Of a stretch of DNA of 64,000 nucleotides, positions 7,036 through 62,471 are shown piece after piece (position 1 is the first letter of the stretch; every line of letters begins with the position of its first letter). Under the pieces are notes generated by a model. It had not been told where the DNA came from. It saw only the letters and a program-made list of their open reading frames with translations, and did no database searches. The stretch covers positions 34,134 through 98,133 of IMG/VR virus record IMGVR_UViG_3300044695_006284. The stretch is one strand, 5' to 3'. The position numbers and the translations under genes are program-made. Source of the stretch: a virus.

Positions 7036-7380
7036 ATGGACATTAAAAGAATTAACGCTCAAATGAAGTCTGGAGAAACCAGGCTTGGAGTGTATGTCTG
7101 GGAAATGCCTGATGGAAGATGGGTCGGAGACGAAGACAATAACTTTTTGTCTATATCGTCCATGATTGGAAACAAAGAAAGAATTGCTTTGCTTGCAACA
7201 GCCGTGGCACACTATGGGATCGATGTTGGCCAACCTAAGTTTATTGAGGGAAGCCGACAAATTGATGATGAAGAGTTTGAGTATCAAAAGCAAAGATTAA
7301 GATGGGGCCTAACTCCAGATCCACTGGACATCGGTGTTCACAAGGAAGAAATGGCTAGACTAAATGGTGGTAAAAAATGA
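7036..7380 (+). CDS. Conserved hypothetical protein upstream of portal
   Basis: 114-aa ORF, ATGA overlap with portal. Confidence 0.75.
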   Translation: MDIKRINAQMKSGETRLGVYVWEMPDGRWVGDEDNNFLSISSMIGNKERIALLATAVAHYGIDVGQPKFIEGSRQIDDEEFEYQKQRLRWGLTPDPLDIGVHKEEMARLNGGKK

Positions 7381-8957
7381 TTGAATACGATGAAGATACA
7401 GTTCAAGATAATGTAGAAATATCTAATGTTGCAGATTGGATGAGATTTAATAATCCCACAACACAAAAATCTGACGATCTGTTTGATATAGATGCCGAAG
7501 AGATATTAAAGCTTTCAGGACTTGGAGCTTCATTTAGAAGAAAAGTGTCTAGAGACCTACAAAAAGCTTTTACTGGTAAAGATGGTGCCGTAACCCAGCA
7601 GCTTCAACACCAACAGGCAGTTAGCGGATACGCCACGTTTGATCTAATTCAGCCAGAGTATAACTTAGATTATCTTTCAACAATTTATGAAATTTCACCT
7701 TACAACTATGCAGCAATAAATGCAAAAGTTGCTAACATTGTAGGACTAGGGTTTGACTTTATTGAATCAAAAAAAACCACAGATACCCTAGAAGATATAG
7801 AAGACGATAAGCAGCTAGAAAGAGCACGTAAAAAGTTAAATAGGATTAAGCAAGACCTACACCGTTGGCTAGAGGATTGCAACGAAGATGAAACATTTAA
7901 AGAAACTCTTGTAAAGTTCTACACTGACATAGAGGCTACTGGTAATGGCTATCTGGAGGTCGGTAGAACAACGACTGGTAAGATAGGGTACATCGGTCAT
8001 ATACCTTCAAAGACAATGCGTGTAAGACGCCTTAGAGACGGTTTTATACAGCTTCTTTATGGCAAAGCTGTTTTCTTTAGAAATTTTGGAGACACAGAAA
8101 CCGTAAACCCAATTGCTGGTCAAGAAGACAGACCTAACGAGATTATTCATTTAAAGAAGTACACTCCAAAGAATAATTACTATGGAATCCCAGACATTAT
8201 TGCTGCACAAAACGCTATGGCTGGAAATGAATTTGCTGGTAAATACAACCTTGACTATTTTGAAAATAAGGCGGTTCCAAGATATATTATTACAGTAAAG
8301 GGAGCAAAGCTTTCTACAGAATCAGAAAGAAAATTGCTTGAGTTTTTTCAGGTAGGATTAAGAGGAAAGAACCACAGATCACTATATATTCCGCTTCCTC
8401 CAGATTCTCCAGATTCAAAAACTGAATTTAAGATGGAGCCAATTGAGGCGGGCTCGCAAGAGTCTTCATTTAATATATATCGCCAATCCAATAGAGATGA
8501 AATATTAATGGCTCACAGAGTCCCAATTAATAAAATTGGCACACCAGCAGGAATCAACCTTGCCGCAGCCAGAGATGCAGATAAGACATTTAAAGAGCAG
8601 GTTTGCAGACCAGCCCAAGAAAATCTAGAAAAGAAATTAAATAAAATTATTCAAGAAATGACCGATGCTCTAGAACTTAGATTTAATGAATTGAGTCTTA
8701 CAGATGCAGATACCCAGTCAAAGATTGATGAAAGATATCTTAGATTCCAAGTAATAACTCCAAATGAAATTAGAGTTAGAATGGGAATGGTTCCAAGAGA
8801 TGGTGGGGATGTCCCAGTAGATCTTGCAGCCCAAGCCGCCGAAATTAAGGCTCAGGCCAACCAAAGCAGAGCACGTGACCAAGAAAGATCTGCAAATTCT
8901 CCAGATAAATCTGGGGAGGGTAGAAATGCAAAAGGAGATGGAAGACAAGTCAACTAG
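7377..8957 (+). CDS. Portal protein
   Basis: DIEATGNGYLEV, EIIHLKKYTP...YYGIP, YFENKAVP, AHRVP, ITPNEIRVRMGM; lies before protease and capsid. Confidence 0.93.
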   Translation: MIEYDEDTVQDNVEISNVADWMRFNNPTTQKSDDLFDIDAEEILKLSGLGASFRRKVSRDLQKAFTGKDGAVTQQLQHQQAVSGYATFDLIQPEYNLDYLSTIYEISPYNYAAINAKVANIVGLGFDFIESKKTTDTLEDIEDDKQLERARKKLNRIKQDLHRWLEDCNEDETFKETLVKFYTDIEATGNGYLEVGRTTTGKIGYIGHIPSKTMRVRRLRDGFIQLLYGKAVFFRNFGDTETVNPIAGQEDRPNEIIHLKKYTPKNNYYGIPDIIAAQNAMAGNEFAGKYNLDYFENKAVPRYIITVKGAKLSTESERKLLEFFQVGLRGKNHRSLYIPLPPDSPDSKTEFKMEPIEAGSQESSFNIYRQSNRDEILMAHRVPINKIGTPAGINLAAARDADKTFKEQVCRPAQENLEKKLNKIIQEMTDALELRFNELSLTDADTQSKIDERYLRFQVITPNEIRVRMGMVPRDGGDVPVDLAAQAAEIKAQANQSRARDQERSANSPDKSGEGRNAKGDGRQVN

Positions 8958-15907: not shown

Positions 15908-16242
15908 ATTTAGCCGCTTTAGAAGGACAAGTTTTTCTTCTGGGTCACTGGAAGAATTACGAGGAATTAGAAGAAAATTTATCAATGCCAGAATTGGTTC
16001 AAACCATAACAGCGATAAATGAAAAAGAGCATAACCAAAGAAAATTTGCAGCGTCACTAAAAGGAATACAATTAGATGATGGTGCAGAAGAAAAAGAAAA
16101 AGGTTCTACCTTTGAAGATATCCAAAGAAGAGCACTTGGAATAAATGCATCAGCAGATGATGTTGTTGGTTTACAAGGGCCCTTTGCAGCGAAAGCTGGA
16201 TTTGGAATTGGCGCAGGGTTAGGATACTCTAGGAGTAATTAG
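15871..16242 (+). CDS. Tail assembly chaperone gpT portion (gpGT fusion of about 222 aa via -1 frameshift)
   Basis: Protein-like frame PNSGSGTGWSELDLAALEGQVFLLGHWKNY... begins well upstream of ATG 15985. Confidence 0.75.
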   Translation, partial: PNSGSGTGWSELDLAALEGQVFLLGHWKNYEELEENLSMPELVQTITAINEKEHNQRKFAASLKGIQLDDGAEEKEKGSTFEDIQRRALGINASADDVVGLQGPFAAKAGFGIGAGLGYSRSN

Positions 16243-19200
16243 TGGCTGACGAACAAATTGTAACCAGTATAGTCGCCAAAGCCGACTTATCTAGCCTTGT
16301 GTCTGAAGTACACAGGGCTAGTTCTAGTCTCCAACAATTACAAAGAGAACTTCTTGCATCGAATAGAGCAATATCTGCTTCAACAAAATTAGCAAATAAC
16401 TTATTTAGAGATACACTAACTGGAAGCGGACAGTTTTCTAGTCACTTTGTAAACCTTAATTCGGATGTAGATAAGTTTGGTAAAAACCTAGACTCTGGAA
16501 GATTAAAGCTTAAGAACTATTTCCAGACATTTAGAGAGCATGCTACAACTCAAAAGGGAATGATAAGGGAGCTTGCCAAAGAGCAGGTAATGCTTCAAAA
16601 CTCAGTGCTACAACCTTTAGGTAGAAATGCTCAAGGCCTAATGCAGTACAACGTTATGATTCCAAGAGGTTTGGATGCCGTAAAAAATAGCGCACAACTA
16701 GCTCGCATGGAACTTCAGATAATGAATCGTGCACTATCTGAAGGAGCAGGATCTTTAATTAACTGGGGTAAAAATACTCAGTGGGCAGGTCGTCAGCTTA
16801 CAGTTGGACTTACAGTTCCATTAACAATGTTTGGTGCTGCAGCAGGAAAAGCATTTAGAGAAGCAGATCAAGAGCTTGTAAGACTTACAAAGGTTTACGG
16901 TGGACTAGCTGCAACTTCTGCAGCAGACTTAAAAGCAATTAGAGAAGAAGTTGTGCAAACAGCAAAATCTTTATCTCAAACAATGGGAGCTTCTTTTAAA
17001 GATACAATTGCGCTAGGTGCTGATATTGCGGCAACTGGAAAGATGGGCAACGAACTTTTAGGTTCTATAGAAGAAACAACCAGACTTGCAATCCTTGGAG
17101 AAGTAGATAGACAAGATGCAATGAAAGCTACTCTTTCAATTCAAACAGCTTTTAAGCAAAACACACAGCAACTTACAGAATCAATTAACTTTCTTAACGC
17201 AGTTGAAAACCAGACATCTACAACACTTAACGATTTAGTAGAAGCAATTCCAAAAGCTGGTCCAGTTATACAGCAACTCGGAGGCAGCATAGAAGACTTA
17301 GCTCTTTATATGACTGCAATGAGAGAAGGTGGAATTAATGCATCTGAAGGTGCAAACGCATTAAAGTCAGGTCTAGCTTCTTTAATTAATCCAACAAAAC
17401 AAACAGTCGGTATAATGTCAGATTTTGGCATAGATGTAATGGGAATGGTTGCAAAAAATACTGGTGATACAACTGGAATGTTGCTAGATTTGCAAAAAGC
17501 TTTAAACACTTTAGATCCTCTAAGTAAAGCTAGAGCACTTGAGCAAATGTTTGGTAAGTTCCAGTTTGCAAGAATGAGCGCACTCCTAAACAACCTTGGA
17601 AAAGAAGGAAGCCAGACGCTTCAGGTTATGGATTTAATGAAGGCAAGTACCTCAGATTTGGCGGGAATTGCAGAGCGAGAATTAGGAATGATTACAGAGT
17701 CTGCATCTGGTAAGTATAGAAGAGCTATGGAGTCTTTAAAAGCACAGCTTGCAGATGTAGGAGATGAGTTTCTTGGGGTTGCAACTAAACTTATAAATGC
17801 TGCGTCAAAGATTTTAGAATTCTTCACTAATTTGCCATCACCGATTAAAAAAGCTCTTACTTTTATGGCAGGATTTACAGCATTAGTTGGCCCACTAATT
17901 ATGTTAACTGGTGTACTTGCCAACTTCTTTGGTTATATAACAAAGGGAATAGTCCAGCTCAGATCTTTCTTTATGAAAGCAAATGGATGGAAGATGCTTA
18001 CTCCAGAAATTATTGCTGCTCAAAAAGCAGCAGAAATGGTTGAGAATGCATTTTATTCAGATGCCGCTGCAGCTCAAGTTCTTCATAATGCATTACAAAA
18101 ACTTGTTTTAGATTATCAAAACCTTCAAGCAGCATCAATGAAGAACGCAGTTCCAGTAAACGCAGGAGTCTCTACAGTTGCTGGAAATACAATTGTTGCT
18201 CCTGCTCATGGAAGAAGAGTTGTAGATCCTGATGATCCATACGTTGGAGATCCTAATACTAGAGCAATGTCTCACATTAGACCGAGAGATCCAAATAATC
18301 CAGCCACCTTGTTTGGTGGTGTGCCAGGAGCTATACCAGTAAACAGGGGAATATCTAGAACTCCTCAAATTTATATGCATGATAGACTTCCAAATGTTGA
18401 AGGCCTAACAAGTGTAAAGGGAATATCTACAGGAATTGTTGCACCAGAGGCCGCTAAGTTTCATGCGCTCATGGCCACACTTGGAATGCAAACAGAACAG
18501 GAAATTGCAGCACTAAAGAAAACTATTGCAATGGGTGGAACAGTAAGTAGAGAGCTTTTAGATACATTCGACGACATTCTTCCAATAACTCAAAGATTTG
18601 CAGATAGCGCAGCAACTCAATCTGCACTAATTGTTCAGCAAATGAGAAATGCAGAAATAACTGTTGATCAGGCAAAGGCAAGAATACTTGCGCTTAATGC
18701 ACAAATAGAAGCAGACATGGGATCAGCAGTAAGTATGTATGCTGCTGGACGAGGAAGAACAATTGATTTAACAAGAGCTCCAATGATGGATCAACCAGTT
18801 GTTGATGCTAATGGACAGTTTACACTTAGAGATTTGTATAAGAAAAAGACAAATGCTGCCGTCATGGAAGAGTTTGGAAGAGTCCGTGGTGTAAGAACAT
18901 TTGGCGCACCTTACAGTATTCAAACAACAAGAATGCCTAAATTTAATATAGGTGGAGAGGTTGAATCATTTGGTCCAAACAAAACAGTGGTTTCAGGACC
19001 ATCTTCAGTAAACTATGATGATAGATTGGGAAGTGTTCCACTAGGTGGATATGTTTTGAACCAGCAAGCTGCAATGGATCCAGCAAATGCCCCATTAGTT
19101 GCAATGGCTCCAAGCACATATTTAAATGACGGTGGAAATATTACAGCAGCTCTTACTCCACGGGAAGTAGTTTTTGGTCCTCAAATTCAAAGAATGCCTG

Positions 19201-22200
19201 AGCTATATGCAGCAGTAGATGCTGCAAATAGTGGATATAGTTTTGGCGGGCAGATCATGAGGGGCACATATGGATATGGAAGAGACAGCGTTCTATCAAT
19301 ATGGGCAAAACTAGTTAACTCTAAAGATTATCCAACTGTAATTAAAGCAGCAACAGTTGCTTCTGATGCTGCCATATTATCACAGCTTACTGGCATGGAT
19401 ATTAAAGATGCCACAAAAAGAGTTTCTTCAGATTATGATGAAGCAATAGAGTATGCTAAAAAAGCAGCAAATCAAAATGGAACAAGGAAAACAGACGAGT
19501 TTGTAAAAGCAAGAACAGCTCAGCTTATTAGATTAAGCAAAGAGTTTCCAGGTGCAAATTTAATTTTAGATGAATATTCAAGTAAAAATAAGTACAATCA
19601 AAAGGCAAAAGCATCTCGTATGAAAGCTATATCTCCTGAGACATACGCAGGAACAATGAAAGCTGTAATTAATGATTTAATAAAAGATGGAGTTTTAACT
19701 CAACGCCAAGCAAATAAAGTTTTTGGAATTTTAGGAGACGCAACAGATTTTTACGATCCAATTTCTAAATCTCACACTATAACTGCAAAAAGAACTGCTT
19801 CAATATTTAATGCAGGGGAACTTCAGGACCTACTTGTTGAAGGAGGAATGTCAAAAGCCGAAGCAGCAAAATTTGCCGATGTTACTGGGGTTAGATCAAA
19901 TAATTTTGTTGGTCAATCTACTGGGCTTGCAAAATCATTTAACTCGATGGGCAACTGGTTACAGCGACGTACAGATGGTACTTTTATAGATGAAGTTTCA
20001 CCATTTCAAGACGAAGCAAAGAGCAATTTTATATCAGGAATTAAAAAACTTAAAGATAAGTTGGGAATTAAAGGACCCGCAACAATGGAGGAAATTATTA
20101 GACAGCTGACCCTGCAGAGAATAAAATCTGCATCGGGATTTAACTCTAAAATGATTACAACAGTTGCTGGAAGGTTGCGCCACATCTCGTTTGCAAAACC
20201 AGCACTAGGCCCGCTTGCTGGATCATTTAATAAAGGCGGTATGATTCCAGGCGGATCTATATCTAGAGGTAGATCAAATTATGGAAATATTGCTCCTGCC
20301 TTAAGATTGCTTGCACCAGATAAACAATTAAAGATTTTAGCAAAGGCAAGAGAATTAAGCTCAAGAGGATCGCTAGGTAAATTTGCTGATATGCCAGTAA
20401 CTGAATATGGGCATCAAATTTCTGCAAGCACAGGAATGAGTTATCCAGTACCTGGTGTATCTGGATTGTATAAGGTCGGTAACAAAAAAGTTTTTGTTAA
20501 AGGTGTTCCTAATGAATTAACTGCCGTCCATGAGCCAATTGGCACTCAAATTACAAGAGATCTTTTTGGAATACATTCTCCAGTACAAACAGCTAGAACA
20601 GTTGCAAATCCAGTAGATCCATCAAAAAAAACCAAGCTCCTTGCTTTAGAATCAGATTATGATCCAAGATTTGCAAACACTAATGTGCCATGGGATGAAG
20701 ATACAATTCTTAGACAGCTTGCTAATTCTCTTCTTTTAAACAACAAAGATTTATCTAGAGCAAACGTGTATGGTAATTTTAATCCAGATGTCGGACAAGC
20801 TGGAGTATTACCTAAAGCATCTGGTAATACACGTCTGGCAACAGCTGATGAAATGAACTCTATGGAAAAGCAAGCACTGATTAATCTACTTGCCGTTAAA
20901 GGTGGAGCAAGAAAAGATTTTGCACGTGACACTGCCCCAATAATTGCTAAGATGAGCCCGAAAAAATATGGTCGACGAATGAAGAAAATATTAGAAGATG
21001 CTCGTCCAAAGTTAGTAAAAATAATAAATGGTTTACCTGAAGATCTTAGACCTCCTTATCAAGCAATGCTTAAAAGATTGGATGATGGTATAGAGGTTGA
21101 TTGGAGTCAATATCATGCCGTGCATGCTAATCCAAAGTATCTTAATGCTGGAGGACCAGTTGGTGGCGGTCCAATCAGACGAGGAAGATATGCTTACGGT
21201 CCTAAAAAAGATGGATCACGCAGACCAGGTAACCCAGCAAAAGCAGCTGCTTGGGATGCAAAGCAACGTGAGCAAAGAGAAAGAGACTTGGCTGCAGAAA
21301 GATCTAGAGCGGCATCTCATCAGATTCAAGGTCAGCAAGCACTTACAACAGGACTTGGCAGAGAGGCAGCAAGAACTGGAACAACAAGTTTTTACAATCC
21401 AGGCTCATTAATATTTCCTCAAATTGGGGCTCAGATAAGAGCATCGTTATCTTATATGTCAAATTCAGTTATAAAAGGATCTGTTCGATTAAATCTTGAG
21501 TTATTAGCGGCAGCTAATAAAACTGCAAATGTTTATAATAGAGCGTCATCTATTGTAACAACTTTTGCAAATAAAGCGCAAGCTTCTATATCATCAATAG
21601 CAAACAGCGTAACAAACTTTGGAGCAAGTAAAATAAATGCAATTGTTAGAGCACAAAATGCATTTGCTGCTAATAATTATCCAGTAGGACAAGCACCAGC
21701 ACAAGGATTCTTTGGTCCAGGAATGATTGGAAGGTATAAAGACCTTGGAGATGGAATACAGTCTAGAAAAGTTGGTGTATTAGGAGCAAGAAGAACAGAA
21801 TATCTAGTTGATGGTGTAACCATGAGTGCTAAGCAGGCACGACAAGCTGGAGTATCTATACCTCAAAGAGCAAACGGAATGAGCGTAGGTGCTCAAATGG
21901 GAATTGGTATGGCTGGATCAATGGGTGGAATGGCATTGATGGGCAAAGAAAAAGTAAATATTTTCGGTAAAGAAACTTCTGGAATGAATGCTGGAATGAT
22001 GTTAATGGGAGCAACTTCCATACTTCCAATGCTTCCATACGTTAAAGCACTTACAGCACTTAAATCTGGAGCATCTTCGGCTAAAGCTGCTATTATGGGA
22101 GTTACTGGTGCAGGGGCAAAGGCAGCACAAGTTGTTGCACAGATAGCAAGATTTGCAAAAGCATTTAGCCTTGTAGGAGTAGTTGCAACAGCAGCATTTG

Positions 22201-25200
22201 GTATATTTAAAATGTATCAAAACTATAAGGATGCTCAGCAAGATGCAACAATGGGTCTTTCTATGACCGCAAGAGCAGCAGAAGAAGCTGGAGTAAAATA
22301 TTTTAACCTTAAAGAAACCATGCAGGGTTATATTGATAAACAAAAGGTTGCTGCAGCAGCAGCAAAGTCTTCAGAATTTAATTCAATCGGAATGCCTGGT
22401 CTCCCTAGATCCATAGAAGATTTAAAGAAGGCTAAGGAAGAGGGCAAGGCTCTAAAGGATTTAATAGAATCATTAAATAGAGCAGATGGAAAGCAAGAAG
22501 CTCAAAGAATAATTAATAATCAAAAGGCGCAAATGGTTGCAGCTGGAATGAGCATTGAAGAAGCAAATAAAAAGATTTATGGAGCTTTAGCAAATAGCAA
22601 CAAGGCTTCCCAATCCTACCAGCTATTAGCAGACGTACAATTTGGATCAATTGTAGATAAAGCTTCCGCAGCATCATTTGCAGTAGGAAACTTGGTAAGT
22701 GTATTAAATAGCACAGACGCTTCAAGTACCCTTGTCGGAAGCGGATTCGAAGGACTAATAAATACATTTGATGAAGCAACAAAGAGCCTTGTTGGAACAA
22801 AAGATGCACTTGGAAATGCTATAGATGATTATGAAGCTTATAAGTTGGTTATGTCTAGTGCGGAAGAACAATTCCCTGGATTTAATGAAGAAATAGGTTC
22901 AGATGCGTATGATAAGTTAAAAGAATCTCAATCCCTATTAGCTGGAATTTCAAACGAGGCAGACAGCATAAAGAGTATATTAGCTAAATGGAAACTGTTT
23001 ACTTCTGGAATAAATCTAGATTTAAAAAACATAGACTCCACACTTGCAATAAAGTTAGCTGGTTTTAGTGAAGCAATTGCTACAGGAATTTCTGACTTAA
23101 CGGCTGCTGCAGATAATTCAACTACATATGGTGCAACAGGCGCAGCATTAAAAAAGATGCAGGGAATAATTTCTGCAAATTCTGCAGCATCTCAAAGAGC
23201 TGCTGCAGCCGAACAAAGATCTTCTCAAGAACAGCTAAAAATTATTTCTAAAAAAATTAAGCTAATCGAGGATGAAAAAAATGCAAAGCTTGATTCCTTA
23301 AGAGCAACTCAAGATGCATCAAATTATGCATTAGAGTTGCAAAAGCTTCAGATTCAATACGCAGATGCTGTTTCTCGTGGAGACATGGCTGCGGCAAATC
23401 AAGCAAAACTTGACATAGATCAGCTAACAATGAATAGACAATCAGACCTTGCTCAAAAAGCAATTGAAGATGCGGCAAAAAAAGCAAAGGAACCTTTAGA
23501 AAAACAAGCACAAGCAATTCAAGATAAGTCTGATAAAAAACAAATAGCTATGGCTAACAACCAGGATAATGCCGCACTTGCAGGTGAAATAACTGCAGCA
23601 ATTCAAAAATTACAGACAACATATAATGATCTTACATCCAGAGCAATTACCGCAACATTCCTTCCAGAAAAACAAAGAGTAGCTGAAGAAGCACAAATTC
23701 AATCAGAGCTGATAGCTTTTCTAAAAGAAATGCAAAAAGCTGGTACTGGATCCACCTTGCTTGCCAAAACAGTAAGAGAGTCTTTCCCAGGTTACTTTGA
23801 TAAAGATGGAAAGCCTTTATCACCTGGCACAACAACTGGTGGATCTCCAACAGGATTTGATAGCAAGGGCAAGCCAATATTCCCAAAGATTACAATACCA
23901 AACTTAGACTCACTAGCTCAGTTTGCTAAAGACCTTAAGTCTGTAGTTACATTAGCCGAAGACATCACTGGTGGAATGAATATAAAAGAGCTTGCAAAAT
24001 CTATTGCTACAAGTCTTCACTACTATAAAACAAGAGAAAATAATATCCCAGGTTCAGGAACTGCAACTTCAATTAAGGCCGCAAACATTGTTGCAAAGGA
24101 TGGAAATGCAGCAGCGAACCAAGCAATGAGAATGACAGACTCTCAAACAAAAAAGTTTACTTTACCAAGTGATCCTACTAGAAAATATTCAGTATTTACA
24201 TATAATTCAAAAACGTATGCTGTAGATCCAATTAGCGGCACAGTCTACAATTTTGATTCAAGCTTAGACATACTAGGGGCTCCCGTTAAAGATAGAAAAA
24301 AGATGGCCACTGGAGGATCAGTTAAACATTTTAATCCAGGTGGAAATGTAAGCGGTCCAGGAACTTCAACATCTGACTCAATTCCTGCAATGCTTTCTGA
24401 CGGTGAGTGGGTAATTAAAGCAGATTCAGTTAAGAAAGCTGAAAAAGAATTTGGGCCTTCATTCTTTAGTGATTTAAATGCTGGCAGATTTGCAAATGGC
24501 GGCAAGGTAAGCAAGATGGGCACAGCAGACTCAATGATTAAAGCAGCAGAGTCCATGATAGGGTATCAGGAAGGAAGAGGCAACGATACTATATTTGGAA
24601 AGTTTGCACAAAAAGCTTATGATCTGCAAACCAGATATATCGCATGGTGCGGTGCTTTTATAAACTGGGCAGCAAAAAAATCTGGAGTAGATTTAGCAAG
24701 TATGATTTGGACTCCTGGAGGAGCTCAATCATTTATGAAGAGCGGCAAGTGGACAACTATGAATCCACGTCGGGGAGATTTAGCCTTTATGGATTTCCCA
24801 GGAGACGGCGTAAATAGAATTTCTCACGTTGGTCTTGTAAGCAATGTTTTAGGAAAGAATTCAGTTTCAACTATAGAAGGAAATACATCAGGATCTGGAA
24901 GCCAAAGAAGCGGCGGAGCCGTGCTTAGAAAAGTAAGACAATACAATTTAAAGAATGCTCCAGTTGTAGGATTTGGAAGACCTTCATATAAGCCAGTAGA
25001 TAACATTAAATATGGATACGGCACACAAGAATACTACAGCGCAGATGATGCTAAATCAGATTATGAAAATGAAAGATACACAGTAAATAGAGGAGACACA
25101 TTATCTAGTATTGCTTCAAAGTACGGAATTACTGTTAACAAATTAATGGAAATGAATCCTCAGCTAAAGGATCCAAAGTATATGGGTGGGTCAAGAATTT

Positions 25201-27578
25201 TTGCAGGTACAAAGGTAAGCATAAAGAAGTTTGCAGAAGGTGGAAAAGTCGTAAACTCATTAACTAATTCTGGAAATTGGATTAGTGGGCCTATAACAGT
25301 ACCAAGACAAAAGAAGCCAGGGGTTCCATATTCAAGATCTGGAAAACCAATAGGAAACCCTTTTGGTCAATATTGGGGAGAGCTTTCTAGATTTATTGGC
25401 CCACGTAGCCCAGGAATGGATATTTGGGGCGGAACAGAAATACCAGGGCTTAAGTTTACTGGAAAGGTTCCACAGCATTCAGACTACATGCATCAGATGC
25501 TTGAGCAGCCACGTAAGCCGTTTGCAAGCCCAGGAATGGGTATAGATAGAGATCCAATGCGATATGCAGGCTCTGGCGCCTCTATGGGCGGCATTGGCAA
25601 TGGAGCATACGGACTTGGCCCATTAATGTTCCATGCTGGCGGTCCAGTAGGGCACACTCATTCAAGCGCACCTCATGACCTAGGTATGAGATCGTTTGGT
25701 TTAAGCAGAAAGCAAACCGAAGCTGAGAAGATGAGACTTCAGCTTACTCCACTTAAGTCTGAAAACCAAAAACAAAAAGCAAGAAAGAACAAAAATCTTT
25801 CATATTATGAATCTAAAATAGATGATCCTATAAATAACTACTCAGAGGGATTTGGTAAAGTATTCACTCGTTCCCCATTCGGACTTCTTGCGCCACTTAC
25901 ATCATTAGCTTCAGATCTTTTGGGTGTTTACTTTCAAGGTAAAACTCCAACATTTGCAAAAGATGGAATTGGAAAAGCTTTAAATCCAACATCTTATGAA
26001 TCAGATGTTTCTAGCTTGATGAAAGCTATGATTCATCCTTTCGGAGAAATTGCAAAGGGAAGCGCAACTAAAGGTGATTGGGCTAATGCAGGATTAAATT
26101 TTGTTCCAGGAGTGGGTGCTCTAAAAGGAGTTAATACACTTCGTGCACGTTCTGCAGCATATAATTTAATAAATAAAGCAACTCTAGATTTACCAACAGA
26201 AGCTAGAGTTAGCCTTATTCCAAACGCTACACTTAGAAGTAATTTTGTGGCTCTTAAAAAAGCAGATAAAGTTGACACACCAGAGTTTGCAAAAGCAAGA
26301 TATGAACTTGCGCTATCTGATGCAATAAGAGCAGCAAGGAGAAATAATTTTACTTCACTACCAGATTTAAAAAATACCACTGCCGCTAATCTTATTGAAG
26401 AAAATAAGAATTTGCCAAAAATTATAGAAGAGTCTATTAAGGTAAACGGAAAAGATTATATTTTTAGGTTTGAAAAAGCAGATATTTTACCTACTGATGC
26501 AAAATACATAGACAAATTTATTGAAGGTTTAAAAGAAGGAAGAGTAACTTCAGAAGGCTTTGGCGCAGGTGGAATGCACCAAGCAGAGATTCTAGATCCT
26601 GTTACTAAAAAACAAATGTCCTGGATAAACTATGATCCAGTTACTGGACACATTAGCTATCGTGGAACACATCCAGAATATAGATGGCTTCATCTTTCAG
26701 AAGCTTTATACAATAAAGCAGTTTCAATTACTAGAATAAAACATTCACCTACTTTAACTGACATGGGAAGGCCATCAGCTCTTCGTATCGGTGGGTTTAT
26801 GGCAGATGATCCTTACTATGGTGCAACTTCAATTACTGGCATAAAGAGCTATCTAGATACACTAATGAAACTTAAAAAGTCTAAGAAAGCAAAGCCATCA
26901 ACTGGAGAGCCAAGGAAAGGTATCGGATCTTGGGAAAATAATCATATAACTGAAACCGTATCCTCTGCACCAGCAACTCCTCGCTACCCCATTGACGAAT
27001 TTAATGATCGAAACAGCATAATTGGCTGGCAGTTTGATAGAACTGCTGACCTTGATTCAGCTCTAAGTGCAGCACTTCGCCCAGAAACTATACGGTGGTT
27101 TGGAAGCACATACCGTACATCAGCAAACTTCCCATATGGTCCAGGCGGATATATAGAGCCAGCAGCTTTACCAGAGCTACAAAGAATTATTGAAGCAGAA
27201 AAACTTGCTAGACAGTCGGAGGCTAGCCGTGGCAGTTGGGGTATCATCCGCGGCGACGGATGGGCAAATGGCGGGCTTGTACAAAACTTCTCAAATTCTT
27301 CATTAAAAAATCTAGGTTTACCAATGTTTGAAAATGGAATCAATATGGTTCCTGCAAATATGTTGGCAATGCTTCATAAAGATGAAGCTGTTATTCCAGC
27401 TAACATGAATCCATTTAATCCAAATGCTACGGCGGCAGCATCAGGATCAGTATATAATATTAATGTAGAATTAAATGGAACAAACGTGACAGCAAAAGAT
27501 GTTGCACTAGAAATACGTAATGAAATGAGATTAAAAGAAATGGCAGCTGGAGTAAATAGAATGGTAGGCAAGCAATGA
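16242..27578 (+). CDS. Giant tape measure protein (3778 aa) with inserted kinase-like, CHAP, LysM and GNAT-like domains
   Basis: TP901-type core (FREADQELVRLTKVYG...GINASEGANALKSGL), hydrophobic segments, coiled coils, GPGTSTSDSIPAMLSDGE motif; follows the chaperones. Confidence 0.93.
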   Translation: MADEQIVTSIVAKADLSSLVSEVHRASSSLQQLQRELLASNRAISASTKLANNLFRDTLTGSGQFSSHFVNLNSDVDKFGKNLDSGRLKLKNYFQTFREHATTQKGMIRELAKEQVMLQNSVLQPLGRNAQGLMQYNVMIPRGLDAVKNSAQLARMELQIMNRALSEGAGSLINWGKNTQWAGRQLTVGLTVPLTMFGAAAGKAFREADQELVRLTKVYGGLAATSAADLKAIREEVVQTAKSLSQTMGASFKDTIALGADIAATGKMGNELLGSIEETTRLAILGEVDRQDAMKATLSIQTAFKQNTQQLTESINFLNAVENQTSTTLNDLVEAIPKAGPVIQQLGGSIEDLALYMTAMREGGINASEGANALKSGLASLINPTKQTVGIMSDFGIDVMGMVAKNTGDTTGMLLDLQKALNTLDPLSKARALEQMFGKFQFARMSALLNNLGKEGSQTLQVMDLMKASTSDLAGIAERELGMITESASGKYRRAMESLKAQLADVGDEFLGVATKLINAASKILEFFTNLPSPIKKALTFMAGFTALVGPLIMLTGVLANFFGYITKGIVQLRSFFMKANGWKMLTPEIIAAQKAAEMVENAFYSDAAAAQVLHNALQKLVLDYQNLQAASMKNAVPVNAGVSTVAGNTIVAPAHGRRVVDPDDPYVGDPNTRAMSHIRPRDPNNPATLFGGVPGAIPVNRGISRTPQIYMHDRLPNVEGLTSVKGISTGIVAPEAAKFHALMATLGMQTEQEIAALKKTIAMGGTVSRELLDTFDDILPITQRFADSAATQSALIVQQMRNAEITVDQAKARILALNAQIEADMGSAVSMYAAGRGRTIDLTRAPMMDQPVVDANGQFTLRDLYKKKTNAAVMEEFGRVRGVRTFGAPYSIQTTRMPKFNIGGEVESFGPNKTVVSGPSSVNYDDRLGSVPLGGYVLNQQAAMDPANAPLVAMAPSTYLNDGGNITAALTPREVVFGPQIQRMPELYAAVDAANSGYSFGGQIMRGTYGYGRDSVLSIWAKLVNSKDYPTVIKAATVASDAAILSQLTGMDIKDATKRVSSDYDEAIEYAKKAANQNGTRKTDEFVKARTAQLIRLSKEFPGANLILDEYSSKNKYNQKAKASRMKAISPETYAGTMKAVINDLIKDGVLTQRQANKVFGILGDATDFYDPISKSHTITAKRTASIFNAGELQDLLVEGGMSKAEAAKFADVTGVRSNNFVGQSTGLAKSFNSMGNWLQRRTDGTFIDEVSPFQDEAKSNFISGIKKLKDKLGIKGPATMEEIIRQLTLQRIKSASGFNSKMITTVAGRLRHISFAKPALGPLAGSFNKGGMIPGGSISRGRSNYGNIAPALRLLAPDKQLKILAKARELSSRGSLGKFADMPVTEYGHQISASTGMSYPVPGVSGLYKVGNKKVFVKGVPNELTAVHEPIGTQITRDLFGIHSPVQTARTVANPVDPSKKTKLLALESDYDPRFANTNVPWDEDTILRQLANSLLLNNKDLSRANVYGNFNPDVGQAGVLPKASGNTRLATADEMNSMEKQALINLLAVKGGARKDFARDTAPIIAKMSPKKYGRRMKKILEDARPKLVKIINGLPEDLRPPYQAMLKRLDDGIEVDWSQYHAVHANPKYLNAGGPVGGGPIRRGRYAYGPKKDGSRRPGNPAKAAAWDAKQREQRERDLAAERSRAASHQIQGQQALTTGLGREAARTGTTSFYNPGSLIFPQIGAQIRASLSYMSNSVIKGSVRLNLELLAAANKTANVYNRASSIVTTFANKAQASISSIANSVTNFGASKINAIVRAQNAFAANNYPVGQAPAQGFFGPGMIGRYKDLGDGIQSRKVGVLGARRTEYLVDGVTMSAKQARQAGVSIPQRANGMSVGAQMGIGMAGSMGGMALMGKEKVNIFGKETSGMNAGMMLMGATSILPMLPYVKALTALKSGASSAKAAIMGVTGAGAKAAQVVAQIARFAKAFSLVGVVATAAFGIFKMYQNYKDAQQDATMGLSMTARAAEEAGVKYFNLKETMQGYIDKQKVAAAAAKSSEFNSIGMPGLPRSIEDLKKAKEEGKALKDLIESLNRADGKQEAQRIINNQKAQMVAAGMSIEEANKKIYGALANSNKASQSYQLLADVQFGSIVDKASAASFAVGNLVSVLNSTDASSTLVGSGFEGLINTFDEATKSLVGTKDALGNAIDDYEAYKLVMSSAEEQFPGFNEEIGSDAYDKLKESQSLLAGISNEADSIKSILAKWKLFTSGINLDLKNIDSTLAIKLAGFSEAIATGISDLTAAADNSTTYGATGAALKKMQGIISANSAASQRAAAAEQRSSQEQLKIISKKIKLIEDEKNAKLDSLRATQDASNYALELQKLQIQYADAVSRGDMAAANQAKLDIDQLTMNRQSDLAQKAIEDAAKKAKEPLEKQAQAIQDKSDKKQIAMANNQDNAALAGEITAAIQKLQTTYNDLTSRAITATFLPEKQRVAEEAQIQSELIAFLKEMQKAGTGSTLLAKTVRESFPGYFDKDGKPLSPGTTTGGSPTGFDSKGKPIFPKITIPNLDSLAQFAKDLKSVVTLAEDITGGMNIKELAKSIATSLHYYKTRENNIPGSGTATSIKAANIVAKDGNAAANQAMRMTDSQTKKFTLPSDPTRKYSVFTYNSKTYAVDPISGTVYNFDSSLDILGAPVKDRKKMATGGSVKHFNPGGNVSGPGTSTSDSIPAMLSDGEWVIKADSVKKAEKEFGPSFFSDLNAGRFANGGKVSKMGTADSMIKAAESMIGYQEGRGNDTIFGKFAQKAYDLQTRYIAWCGAFINWAAKKSGVDLASMIWTPGGAQSFMKSGKWTTMNPRRGDLAFMDFPGDGVNRISHVGLVSNVLGKNSVSTIEGNTSGSGSQRSGGAVLRKVRQYNLKNAPVVGFGRPSYKPVDNIKYGYGTQEYYSADDAKSDYENERYTVNRGDTLSSIASKYGITVNKLMEMNPQLKDPKYMGGSRIFAGTKVSIKKFAEGGKVVNSLTNSGNWISGPITVPRQKKPGVPYSRSGKPIGNPFGQYWGELSRFIGPRSPGMDIWGGTEIPGLKFTGKVPQHSDYMHQMLEQPRKPFASPGMGIDRDPMRYAGSGASMGGIGNGAYGLGPLMFHAGGPVGHTHSSAPHDLGMRSFGLSRKQTEAEKMRLQLTPLKSENQKQKARKNKNLSYYESKIDDPINNYSEGFGKVFTRSPFGLLAPLTSLASDLLGVYFQGKTPTFAKDGIGKALNPTSYESDVSSLMKAMIHPFGEIAKGSATKGDWANAGLNFVPGVGALKGVNTLRARSAAYNLINKATLDLPTEARVSLIPNATLRSNFVALKKADKVDTPEFAKARYELALSDAIRAARRNNFTSLPDLKNTTAANLIEENKNLPKIIEESIKVNGKDYIFRFEKADILPTDAKYIDKFIEGLKEGRVTSEGFGAGGMHQAEILDPVTKKQMSWINYDPVTGHISYRGTHPEYRWLHLSEALYNKAVSITRIKHSPTLTDMGRPSALRIGGFMADDPYYGATSITGIKSYLDTLMKLKKSKKAKPSTGEPRKGIGSWENNHITETVSSAPATPRYPIDEFNDRNSIIGWQFDRTADLDSALSAALRPETIRWFGSTYRTSANFPYGPGGYIEPAALPELQRIIEAEKLARQSEASRGSWGIIRGDGWANGGLVQNFSNSSLKNLGLPMFENGINMVPANMLAMLHKDEAVIPANMNPFNPNATAAASGSVYNINVELNGTNVTAKDVALEIRNEMRLKEMAAGVNRMVGKQ
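20463..21140 (+). other. HipA/PI3K-like kinase-fold domain inside the tape measure protein
   Basis: GLYK...VFVK (beta3 Lys), HE (helix C Glu), LLNNKDLSRAN (catalytic loop), DVG (DFG equivalent). Confidence 0.55.
24535..25229 (+). other. CHAP peptidoglycan hydrolase plus LysM domain inside the tape measure protein
   Basis: AWCGAFINW, SHVGLV, TIEGNT, GFGRP; YTVNRGDTLSSIASKYGITVNKLMEMNP. Confidence 0.9.
26560..26800 (+). other. GNAT-like domain inside the tape measure protein
   Basis: HISYRGTHPEYRWLHLSEALY...IKHSPTLTDMG resembles a phage GNAT pattern; motif A is degenerate. Confidence 0.4.
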
Positions 27579-57292: not shown

Positions 57293-57366
57293 GCAACAAT
57301 AGCTTAGTTGGTTAAAGCCCCGAACTCATAATTCGGTAATCGTAGGTTCAAGTCCTACTTGTTGCA
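57293..57366 (+). tRNA. tRNA with CAT anticodon (elongator Met or Ile2)
   Basis: GCAACAA/TTGTTGC acceptor stem, CCGAA-CTCATAA-TTCGG anticodon arm, GTAGG-TTCAAGT-CCTAC T arm; no initiator features; no encoded CCA. Confidence 0.9.
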
Positions 57367-57377
57367 CAGGAGGTAGC

Positions 57378-62215: not shown

Positions 62216-62288
62216 GCCCTTGTAGCTCAGCGGATAGAGCGAGGCTCTTCTAAGGCCTGCGTCAGAGGTTCGATTCCTTTCAGGGGCG
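62216..62288 (+). tRNA. tRNA-Arg(TCT)
   Basis: GCCCTTG/CAGGGGC acceptor, AGGCT-CTTCTAA-GGCCT anticodon arm, TTCGATT T loop. Confidence 0.92.
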
Positions 62289-62298
62289 CATTGCATTT

Positions 62299-62371
62299 TG
62301 GACCATAGCTCAGTTGGCAGAGCGCAGAGCTGTTAACTCTGATGTCCCAGGTTCGAGCCCTGGTGGTCCAG
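62299..62371 (+). tRNA. tRNA-Asn(GTT)
   Basis: TGGACCA/TGGTCCA acceptor, CAGAG-CTGTTAA-CTCTG anticodon arm, TTCGAGC T loop. Confidence 0.93.
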
Positions 62372-62384
62372 CGCAATAATGTTG

Positions 62385-62457
62385 GTCCCTATAGCTCAGT
62401 TGGTAGAGCAACAGACTTTTAATCTGTGGGTCGTAGGATCGATACCTACTGGGGACA
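62385..62457 (+). tRNA. tRNA-Lys(TTT) with atypical T loop
   Basis: GTCCCTA/TGGGGAC acceptor, ACAGA-CTTTTAA-TCTGT anticodon arm, T loop ATCGATA. Confidence 0.9.
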
Positions 62458-62471
62458 CGTCATATGCAATA

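Follow-up and report, generated by a model that had tools for sequence, protein, structure and literature searches.

Tape measure proteins (TMPs) of siphophages are ejected into the cell envelope, where they form a conduit for the DNA, and the passengers known in them are wall hydrolases (PMC6116005). Peptidoglycan hydrolases embedded in TMPs have been reported for TM4, T5 pb2 and phiIPLA35, and the TMP activities listed in that review do not include a kinase fold (PMC6116005). The TMP considered here is encoded in the last 64 kb of the 98,133-bp IMG/VR virus record IMGVR_UViG_3300044695_006284, which is estimated to be 78% complete; the whole 64,000-nucleotide stretch analyzed is referred to below as the window. 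Like the TMPs of TM4, T5 and phiIPLA35, this protein has enzymatic passengers, including a CHAP-LysM wall-hydrolase region, and it also contains, at amino acids (aa) ~1369-1634, a domain for which a kinase fold is predicted. The hydrolases of the three described TMPs, unlike a kinase domain, act on the wall outside the membrane and are independent of ATP.

TMPs are usually viewed as rulers or DNA conduits with wall hydrolases at most, and the one exception that we found is gp96 of the Thermus phage P23-45, a 5002-aa TMP fused to a virion RNA polymerase whose activity was shown experimentally (PMC10770324). The authors of that study propose that the polymerase works at the TMP pore during DNA entry (PMC10770324). 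Both gp96 and the TMP of the window are giant proteins with membrane and peptidase regions, and gp96 carries an enzyme that acts in the cytoplasm. The enzyme of gp96 is an N-terminal two-barrel RNA polymerase, whereas here a kinase fold, predicted from sequence and a structural model, is located in an internal loop. The active polymerase of gp96, assigned to the TMP pore by its authors, shows that delivery of a TMP-borne enzyme is feasible.

Another likeness is to T7 gp0.7, an early kinase acting on host proteins, which is expressed after entry and is not carried by the virion. [quoted passage not shown] They resemble the TMP domain as pre-made kinases of an invading element and in the cassette-like recombination of effector domains (PMC5512222). 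In contrast to them, the TMP domain has a confidently modeled helical C-lobe (model residues 173-260) and so falls outside this group; kinases in TMPs are not mentioned in the paper on polyvalent proteins (PMC5512222). No description of a kinase inside a TMP was found in the literature searched.

Predicted fold and structural neighbors

According to our analysis, the domain is predicted to have a bilobal protein-kinase-like (PKL) fold. The AlphaFold2 model, run on a 39-sequence alignment of the domain, reached a predicted local distance difference test (pLDDT) score of 90.4 and a predicted template modeling (pTM) score of 0.89. The model begins with two strands joined by a Gly-rich loop and continues with a third strand, on which K1420 lies, and a long helix bearing E1431. 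Two more strands, a short helix and a helix followed by the D1503...N1508 loop come next, and the model ends with two bridge residues, D1516-V-G and the helical C-lobe. This order of elements matches that of a protein kinase.

When the model was compared by VIA-align with 48,161 representative chains, the best 50 contained kinase folds only. The highest score belonged to CotH of Bacillus cereus (PDB 5jda; Z 10.9, 218 aa aligned, 4.3 Å), followed by MavQ (10.1), PI4KIIa (9.7), CtkA (9.7), Fam20 (8.9), actin-fragmin kinase (8.7), ATM (8.4), HipA (8.2), HipT (8.1) and the PI3Ks (about 8). As modeled, the domain is structurally nearest to the atypical CotH/MavQ/PI4KII/CtkA group; since these rows are tied within ~1 Z unit, a substrate class is not assignable from them. 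In a Foldseek search of the PDB, CtkA came out on top (probability 0.99, E = 2.9e-3), and all of the best 50 matches were kinases. A preliminary description of the window, made from the sequence alone, had proposed a HipA/PI3K-like kinase cassette inside the TMP and named structure prediction as a check; AlphaFold2, Foldseek and VIA-align bear out the kinase fold, while the assignment to HipA or PI3/4K did not stand (see below).

Against the BFVD database, the best Foldseek match was a phage protein annotated as "PI3-/4-kinase catalytic domain" (E = 1.4e-5), and the next were large portal-fused, ADP-ribosyltransferase-annotated and head-morphogenesis proteins, including those of Mycobacterium and Gordonia phages. 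Examples are the proteins of Mycobacterium phage Onyinye (1340 aa) and of the Gordonia phages GodonK (1479 aa) and Sixama (774 aa), as well as a 1201-aa portal-annotated protein. Judging from these structural matches, cultured actinophages seem to have similar kinase folds in large virion proteins of the portal, MuF and ADP-ribosyltransferase types. By tblastn, these proteins showed no sequence similarity to the TMP kinase family; they could serve as experimentally tractable analogues of a virion-carried kinase. A language-model search placed PI3_PI4_kinase and HipA_2 nearest among the Pfam-named clusters, which is a lead only.

Catalytic residues and their conservation

The domain and its predicted catalytic elements are located as follows.

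20346..21143, plus strand: kinase-fold domain as modeled, aa 1369-1634 (conserved core aa ~1373-1632)
20433..20471, plus strand: Gly-rich loop (G1398, S1400, G1408, Y1410) between strands 1 and 2
20499..20501, plus strand: K1420, strand-3 lysine (VFVK), in GLYKVGNKKVFVKG
20532..20534, plus strand: E1431, helix-C glutamate, in AVHE
20736..20765, plus strand: catalytic loop, aa 1499-1508, within LLNNKDLSRANV
20787..20795, plus strand: D1516-V-G1518 in PDVG, with the DFG-equivalent metal-binding Asp

Conservation was counted over 129 excised and aligned homologous domains. In the Gly-rich loop, which sits between model strands 24-27 and 40-44, G1398, S1400 and G1408 are each found in 129/129 sequences and Y1410 in 125/129. 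K1420 (model strand 47-54) and E1431 (model helix 57-74), which were assigned by secondary-structure position and not from superposed coordinates, are both invariant (129/129). The catalytic loop follows model helix 118-130; the predicted catalytic Asp, D1503 (nucleotides 20748-20750), is kept in 128/129 sequences, and N1508 (20763-20765), at +5 from it, in 129/129. D1516 (20787-20789) is likewise present in 129/129, and the Gly of the same motif in 125/129. Because the catalytic residues are conserved across 129 homologous domains, the motifs are not the product of chance. The four motifs on which the preliminary description relied, GLYKVGNKKVFVKG, AVHE, LLNNKDLSRANV and PDVG, all lie in frame where it had placed them in one TMP, and conservation of the K/E/D/N/D residues in homologues, its second check, is borne out by the counts above. 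Its span of 20226-21161 (aa 1329-1640) located the domain correctly, with a conserved core that proved slightly shorter.

The catalytic loop of the window reads L-N-N-K-D-L-S-R-A-N, versus the family consensus R-G-D-K-D-L-x-x-x-N. Positions 1499 and 1501 covary perfectly, with R/D in 122 sequences and (M/L)/N in seven; the window has L/N. According to the alignment, R1499L together with D1501N is the signature of a lost salt-bridge pair and not of a catalytic defect. We therefore rejected L1499/N1501 as the mark of a dead enzyme, as the pair covaries and the catalytic D1503 is retained. The Ser at position 1505 had initially been read as a replacement of the loop His, but this position is merely variable in the family (S in 54, Q in 27 and G in 22 of the 129 sequences).

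The ratio of nonsynonymous to synonymous substitution rates (dN/dS) over the domain was 0.12-0.30 in comparison with close IMG/VR relatives of the window's own clade, and the domain is under purifying selection. The sole homologue of the 129 with a replaced catalytic Asp is P0058, an 863-aa metagenomic fragment with Val at this position (G-D-K-V-L), which may reflect either a pseudokinase variant or an error in sequencing. A highly conserved basic loop, [GA]-V-K-G-G-A-[KR]-[KR], was also observed at 20886-20915 (aa 1549-1558, model residues 181-190). It is the only stretch of the domain modeled with low confidence (block mean pLDDT 56) and may be a mobile substrate-binding or regulatory loop.

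A new sequence family

An exhaustive phmmer search over 1.84 billion cluster representatives yielded 158 relatives at E<=1e-3, 114 of them at E<=1e-30. Nearly all are giant TMPs of 2000-4400 aa, and the matched core corresponds to query residues ~45-304. Members of the family, in the set of 129 sequences, share 30-45% identity.

The domain has no match in Pfam or PHROGs. Pfam searches with 39 homologues at E<=10 gave noise only, as did phmmer and a 39-sequence profile against PDB sequences (e.g., orange carotenoid protein, E = 0.21). The HipA (PF07804) and PI3/4K (PF00454) profiles did not match the domain, and the HipA_2 (PF20613) and CotH (PF08757) profiles found nothing in the phage genome, with both detecting matches in control genomes. 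By hhalign, the probability of a relationship was 0.4% with Escherichia coli HipA and 0.1% when the 39-sequence alignment was compared with an alignment of eight CotH domains. The family loop, D-K-D-L-x-x-x-N, has neither the conserved His of the HipA loop (D-x-H-x-x-N), the corresponding position 1505 being variable, nor the G-D-R-H-x-x-N of PI3/4K. Thus, in comparison with HipA, HipT and CtkA and with PI3K, PI4K and MavQ, the loop His (that of HipA and that of the PI3K DRH) is absent from the TMP family; in addition, the TMP domain differs from HipA-type systems in being embedded in a TMP and having no antitoxin partner. Membership in the HipA, PI3/4K or CotH families was rejected, as the profile, loop and hhalign tests all failed.

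Based on these results, the domain is a new sequence family of the PKL fold that has no profile in Pfam, PHROGs or the PDB. Almost all of its members lie in giant TMPs, and these belong to uncultured phages with kinship to Stanwilliamsviridae (cluster BE), a group of Streptomyces phages. A scan of 185,579 genomes returned only one relative, carried by a contig of 85 kb from a metagenome-assembled genome labeled Bifidobacterium; this contig may be of phage origin and have been binned with that genome. As a prophage or cellular gene, the domain is thus not common.

Layout of the tape measure protein and placement of the domain

The other features of the TMP gene are listed below.

16242..27578, plus strand: TMP gene, 3778 aa, a single uninterrupted frame according to the open reading frame (ORF) list and translation
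16956..17555, plus strand: PhageMin_Tail domain, aa 239-438 (Pfam PF10145, E = 1e-27)
17850..17939, plus strand: first hydrophobic, membrane-type segment, aa 537-566 (Kyte-Doolittle 19-aa mean 1.94)
20226..20246, plus strand: upstream GG junction motif FNKGGMI, aa 1329-1335 (regular-expression scan)
21141..21161, plus strand: downstream GG junction motif LNAGGPV, aa 1634-1640 (regular-expression scan)
21885..22217, plus strand: second hydrophobic cluster, aa 1882-1992 (Kyte-Doolittle scan, peak 1.84)
24639..25223, plus strand: CHAP (aa 2800-2881) and LysM (aa 2946-2994) wall-hydrolase cassette (Pfam PF05257, 7.6e-7; PF01476, 3.1e-12)

The identity of the TMP follows from its PhageMin_Tail match in Pfam (1e-27), from PHROG TMP families matched down to 1e-117, from its hydrophobic segments and from its position in the tail module. 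The gene order, two small ORFs, the TMP and then minor tail proteins, is the same as at the annotated TMP of Mildred21. The second hydrophobic cluster consists of weak Gly/Met-rich segments and one strong segment at aa 1971-1989, and the CHAP-LysM region also matches PHROG endolysin families.

Both hydrophobic clusters noticed in the preliminary description were recovered by the Kyte-Doolittle scan, and the arrangement that it pointed out, with the kinase between them and CHAP-LysM beyond, is real and holds across the family. The placement on opposite sides of the membrane that the description drew from this arrangement, like its virion delivery, host takeover and anti-defence, stays at the level of inference. 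In the set of 101 long homologues with a retained PhageMin_Tail region, every protein has a hydrophobic segment ahead of the kinase, and 89 have a further one behind it. The kinase usually lies at aa ~750-1005, ~180 aa past the first membrane segment; in the window, additional cassettes separate the two. In three distant kinase-bearing TMPs, Pfam found PhageMin_Tail only.

The N-terminal part of the TMP is ~39% identical to annotated TMPs of Streptomyces phages. In the 2104-aa TMP of Mildred21, the hydrophobic regions are located at 517-553 and 730-824, only ~177 aa apart, and no kinase was detected in it even with the family hidden Markov model at maximum sensitivity. Since Mildred21 has both regions with a short gap and no kinase, the kinase and other cargo were apparently added between the two membrane-inserting regions. 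The kinase is present in 111 of 116 close TMP relatives (N-terminal part at least 77% identical). In P0250, one of the five without it, homology to the TMP of the window breaks off at aa 1069 and sets in again at aa 1628, where P0250 has the motif FNLGGPI; this return of homology exactly at the post-kinase GG motif supports a cassette boundary there. In place of the kinase, two other close relatives, P0266 and P0267, bear OmpA-like (PF00691) and PF18013 domains, as listed in the precomputed Pfam column, which shows that different cargo is swapped on the same TMP scaffold.

The two GG motifs that had been described as bracketing the kinase, FNKGGMI and LNAGGPV, are present. This bracketing is a trait of the subfamily, and we rejected it as a family-wide one: a GG motif occurs within 80 aa upstream of the kinase in 40/128 homologues and within 30 aa downstream in 22/128. 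In the window, fifteen in-frame [hydrophobic]-x-x-G-G-x-[VILM] motifs split the TMP into cassettes at 18525-27281 (aa 762-3680). In P0250, the break in homology and its resumption fall at such a motif. Motifs of this type are frequent in the TMP subfamily of the window and number 0-2 per protein in many distant kinase-bearing TMPs.

Proposed role and alternative explanations

We propose that aa ~1369-1634 form a catalytically competent PKL domain that serves as a tethered ATP-dependent kinase on the cytoplasmic side of the TMP entry pore, an interpretation that we regard as fairly likely. On infection, the TMP would leave the tail with its C-terminal end first, the CHAP-LysM part would cut the wall, and the two hydrophobic regions would enter the cytoplasmic membrane and form the DNA conduit. 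The long kinase-bearing loop between them would then end on the cytoplasmic side, with both ends of the TMP directed outward; the loop is placed there because ATP, which a kinase requires, is confined to the cytoplasm, and the conserved position of the kinase between two membrane-inserting regions, with CHAP-LysM past them, agrees with such a topology. The tethered, pre-made kinase could phosphorylate a membrane-proximal host target before phage genes are expressed, for the purpose of takeover, anti-defence or stabilization of entry. Judging from sequence conservation and the structural model, a kinase made in advance probably enters the cell together with the phage DNA. A protein is the most likely substrate, and a lipid is less likely.

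Several points weigh against this interpretation. The outward direction of both ends holds only if the number of membrane crossings is odd for each hydrophobic region, and a folded domain of ~30 kDa, multiplied by the copy number of the TMP, would by our own estimate be a tight fit in the lumen of the tail tube. The spacing of 13 residues from D1503 to D1516 is below that of typical kinases, in which the equivalent Asp pair is ~17-23 residues apart. The Pfam, PDB and hhalign searches gave no sequence link to any characterized kinase, and tblastn against 50,697 phage records left the domain unmatched, so that no cultured phage among them carries it. Finally, its absence from the Mildred21 TMP and from 5/116 close relatives marks the domain as accessory and dispensable.

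The membrane-proximal position would also suit a tethered kinase of a lipid, e.g., phosphatidylinositol, which actinobacteria make, or of a wall-precursor sugar, which in a MavQ/PI4K-like manner would change the membrane or wall locally at the entry site and so help the channel to form or block superinfection. We consider such a role unlikely: PF00454 does not match, the D-K-D-L-x-x-x-N loop is unlike the D-R-H-x-x-N of PI3/4K, and most structural neighbors (CotH, CtkA, Fam20C, actin-fragmin kinase and HipA) are protein kinases.

The difficulty of passing a folded domain through the tail tube is sidestepped if the kinase acts in the producing cell, where ATP is freely at hand, and phosphorylates the TMP or other virion proteins during tail assembly, much as CotH acts when the spore coat is assembled. 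CotH, the top structural neighbor, is itself linked to assembly, but no sequence relation to CotH was found. Furthermore, since the domain is missing from Mildred21 and from five of the 116 otherwise similar TMPs, it is not needed for tail assembly, and its constant placement between membrane-inserting regions would be left unexplained. This explanation is therefore quite improbable in our view.

We give little credence to a kinase fold with another chemistry, such as AMPylation (SelO-type) or glutamylation (SidJ-type), or to an ATPase or ATP sensor by which rearrangement of the TMP is driven or gated. The sequence assigns no family, and the K/E/D/N/D constellation serves AMPylation- and glutamylation-type activities in other PKL families. 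However, SelO and SidJ are absent from the 50 best VIA-align neighbors, and the canonical D-x4-N plus D-x-G layout is of the phosphotransferase type. A pseudokinase, or a purely structural spacer adding length or a folded plug to the TMP, is very hard to credit, for although Val replaces the catalytic Asp in P0058 and the clade of the window lost the R1499/D1501 pair, this loss concerns a covarying pair away from the catalytic positions, those positions and the Gly-rich loop show little or no variation across sequences of 30-45% identity, and dN/dS is low (0.12-0.30).

Returning to the tethered kinase, a broader and more tentative proposal, which we consider possible though somewhat doubtful, is that giant TMPs serve as effector-delivery polyproteins in a large group of phages that are uncultured and probably actinobacterial. 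A pre-made kinase of the new PKL family, set at the cytoplasmic face of the pore by the membrane-inserting regions, would modify host proteins or lipids within seconds of adsorption, prior to phage transcription. If true, such TMPs would represent a kind of host manipulation by phages so far undescribed for tape measure proteins. The presence of a conserved and apparently active kinase in hundreds of TMPs, in the loop between the membrane-inserting regions, suggests that siphophage tails also deliver signaling or modifying enzymes. The domain may also provide a handle on the fate of TMPs after ejection and on the side of the membrane that their parts reach, and the new kinase-fold family could enter annotation resources and be mined for anti-defence functions.

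Putative host and additional observations

The portal protein (7377-8957) is 56-58% identical to the portals of ~127-133 kb Streptomyces phages (Stanwilliamsviridae/cluster BE, e.g., Mildred21), which indirectly supports an actinobacterial host. WhiB, a host marker, was not found in the 78%-complete phage record. The GC content of the window is ~32-42% in 2-kb windows, and the combination of a Streptomyces-like portal with low GC is consistent with a phage whose hosts are low-GC actinobacteria, perhaps from freshwater. Four tRNA genes (Met-CAT, Arg-TCT, Asn-GTT and Lys-TTT) were identified in the window, at 57293-57367 and 62216-62458, three of them tightly clustered.

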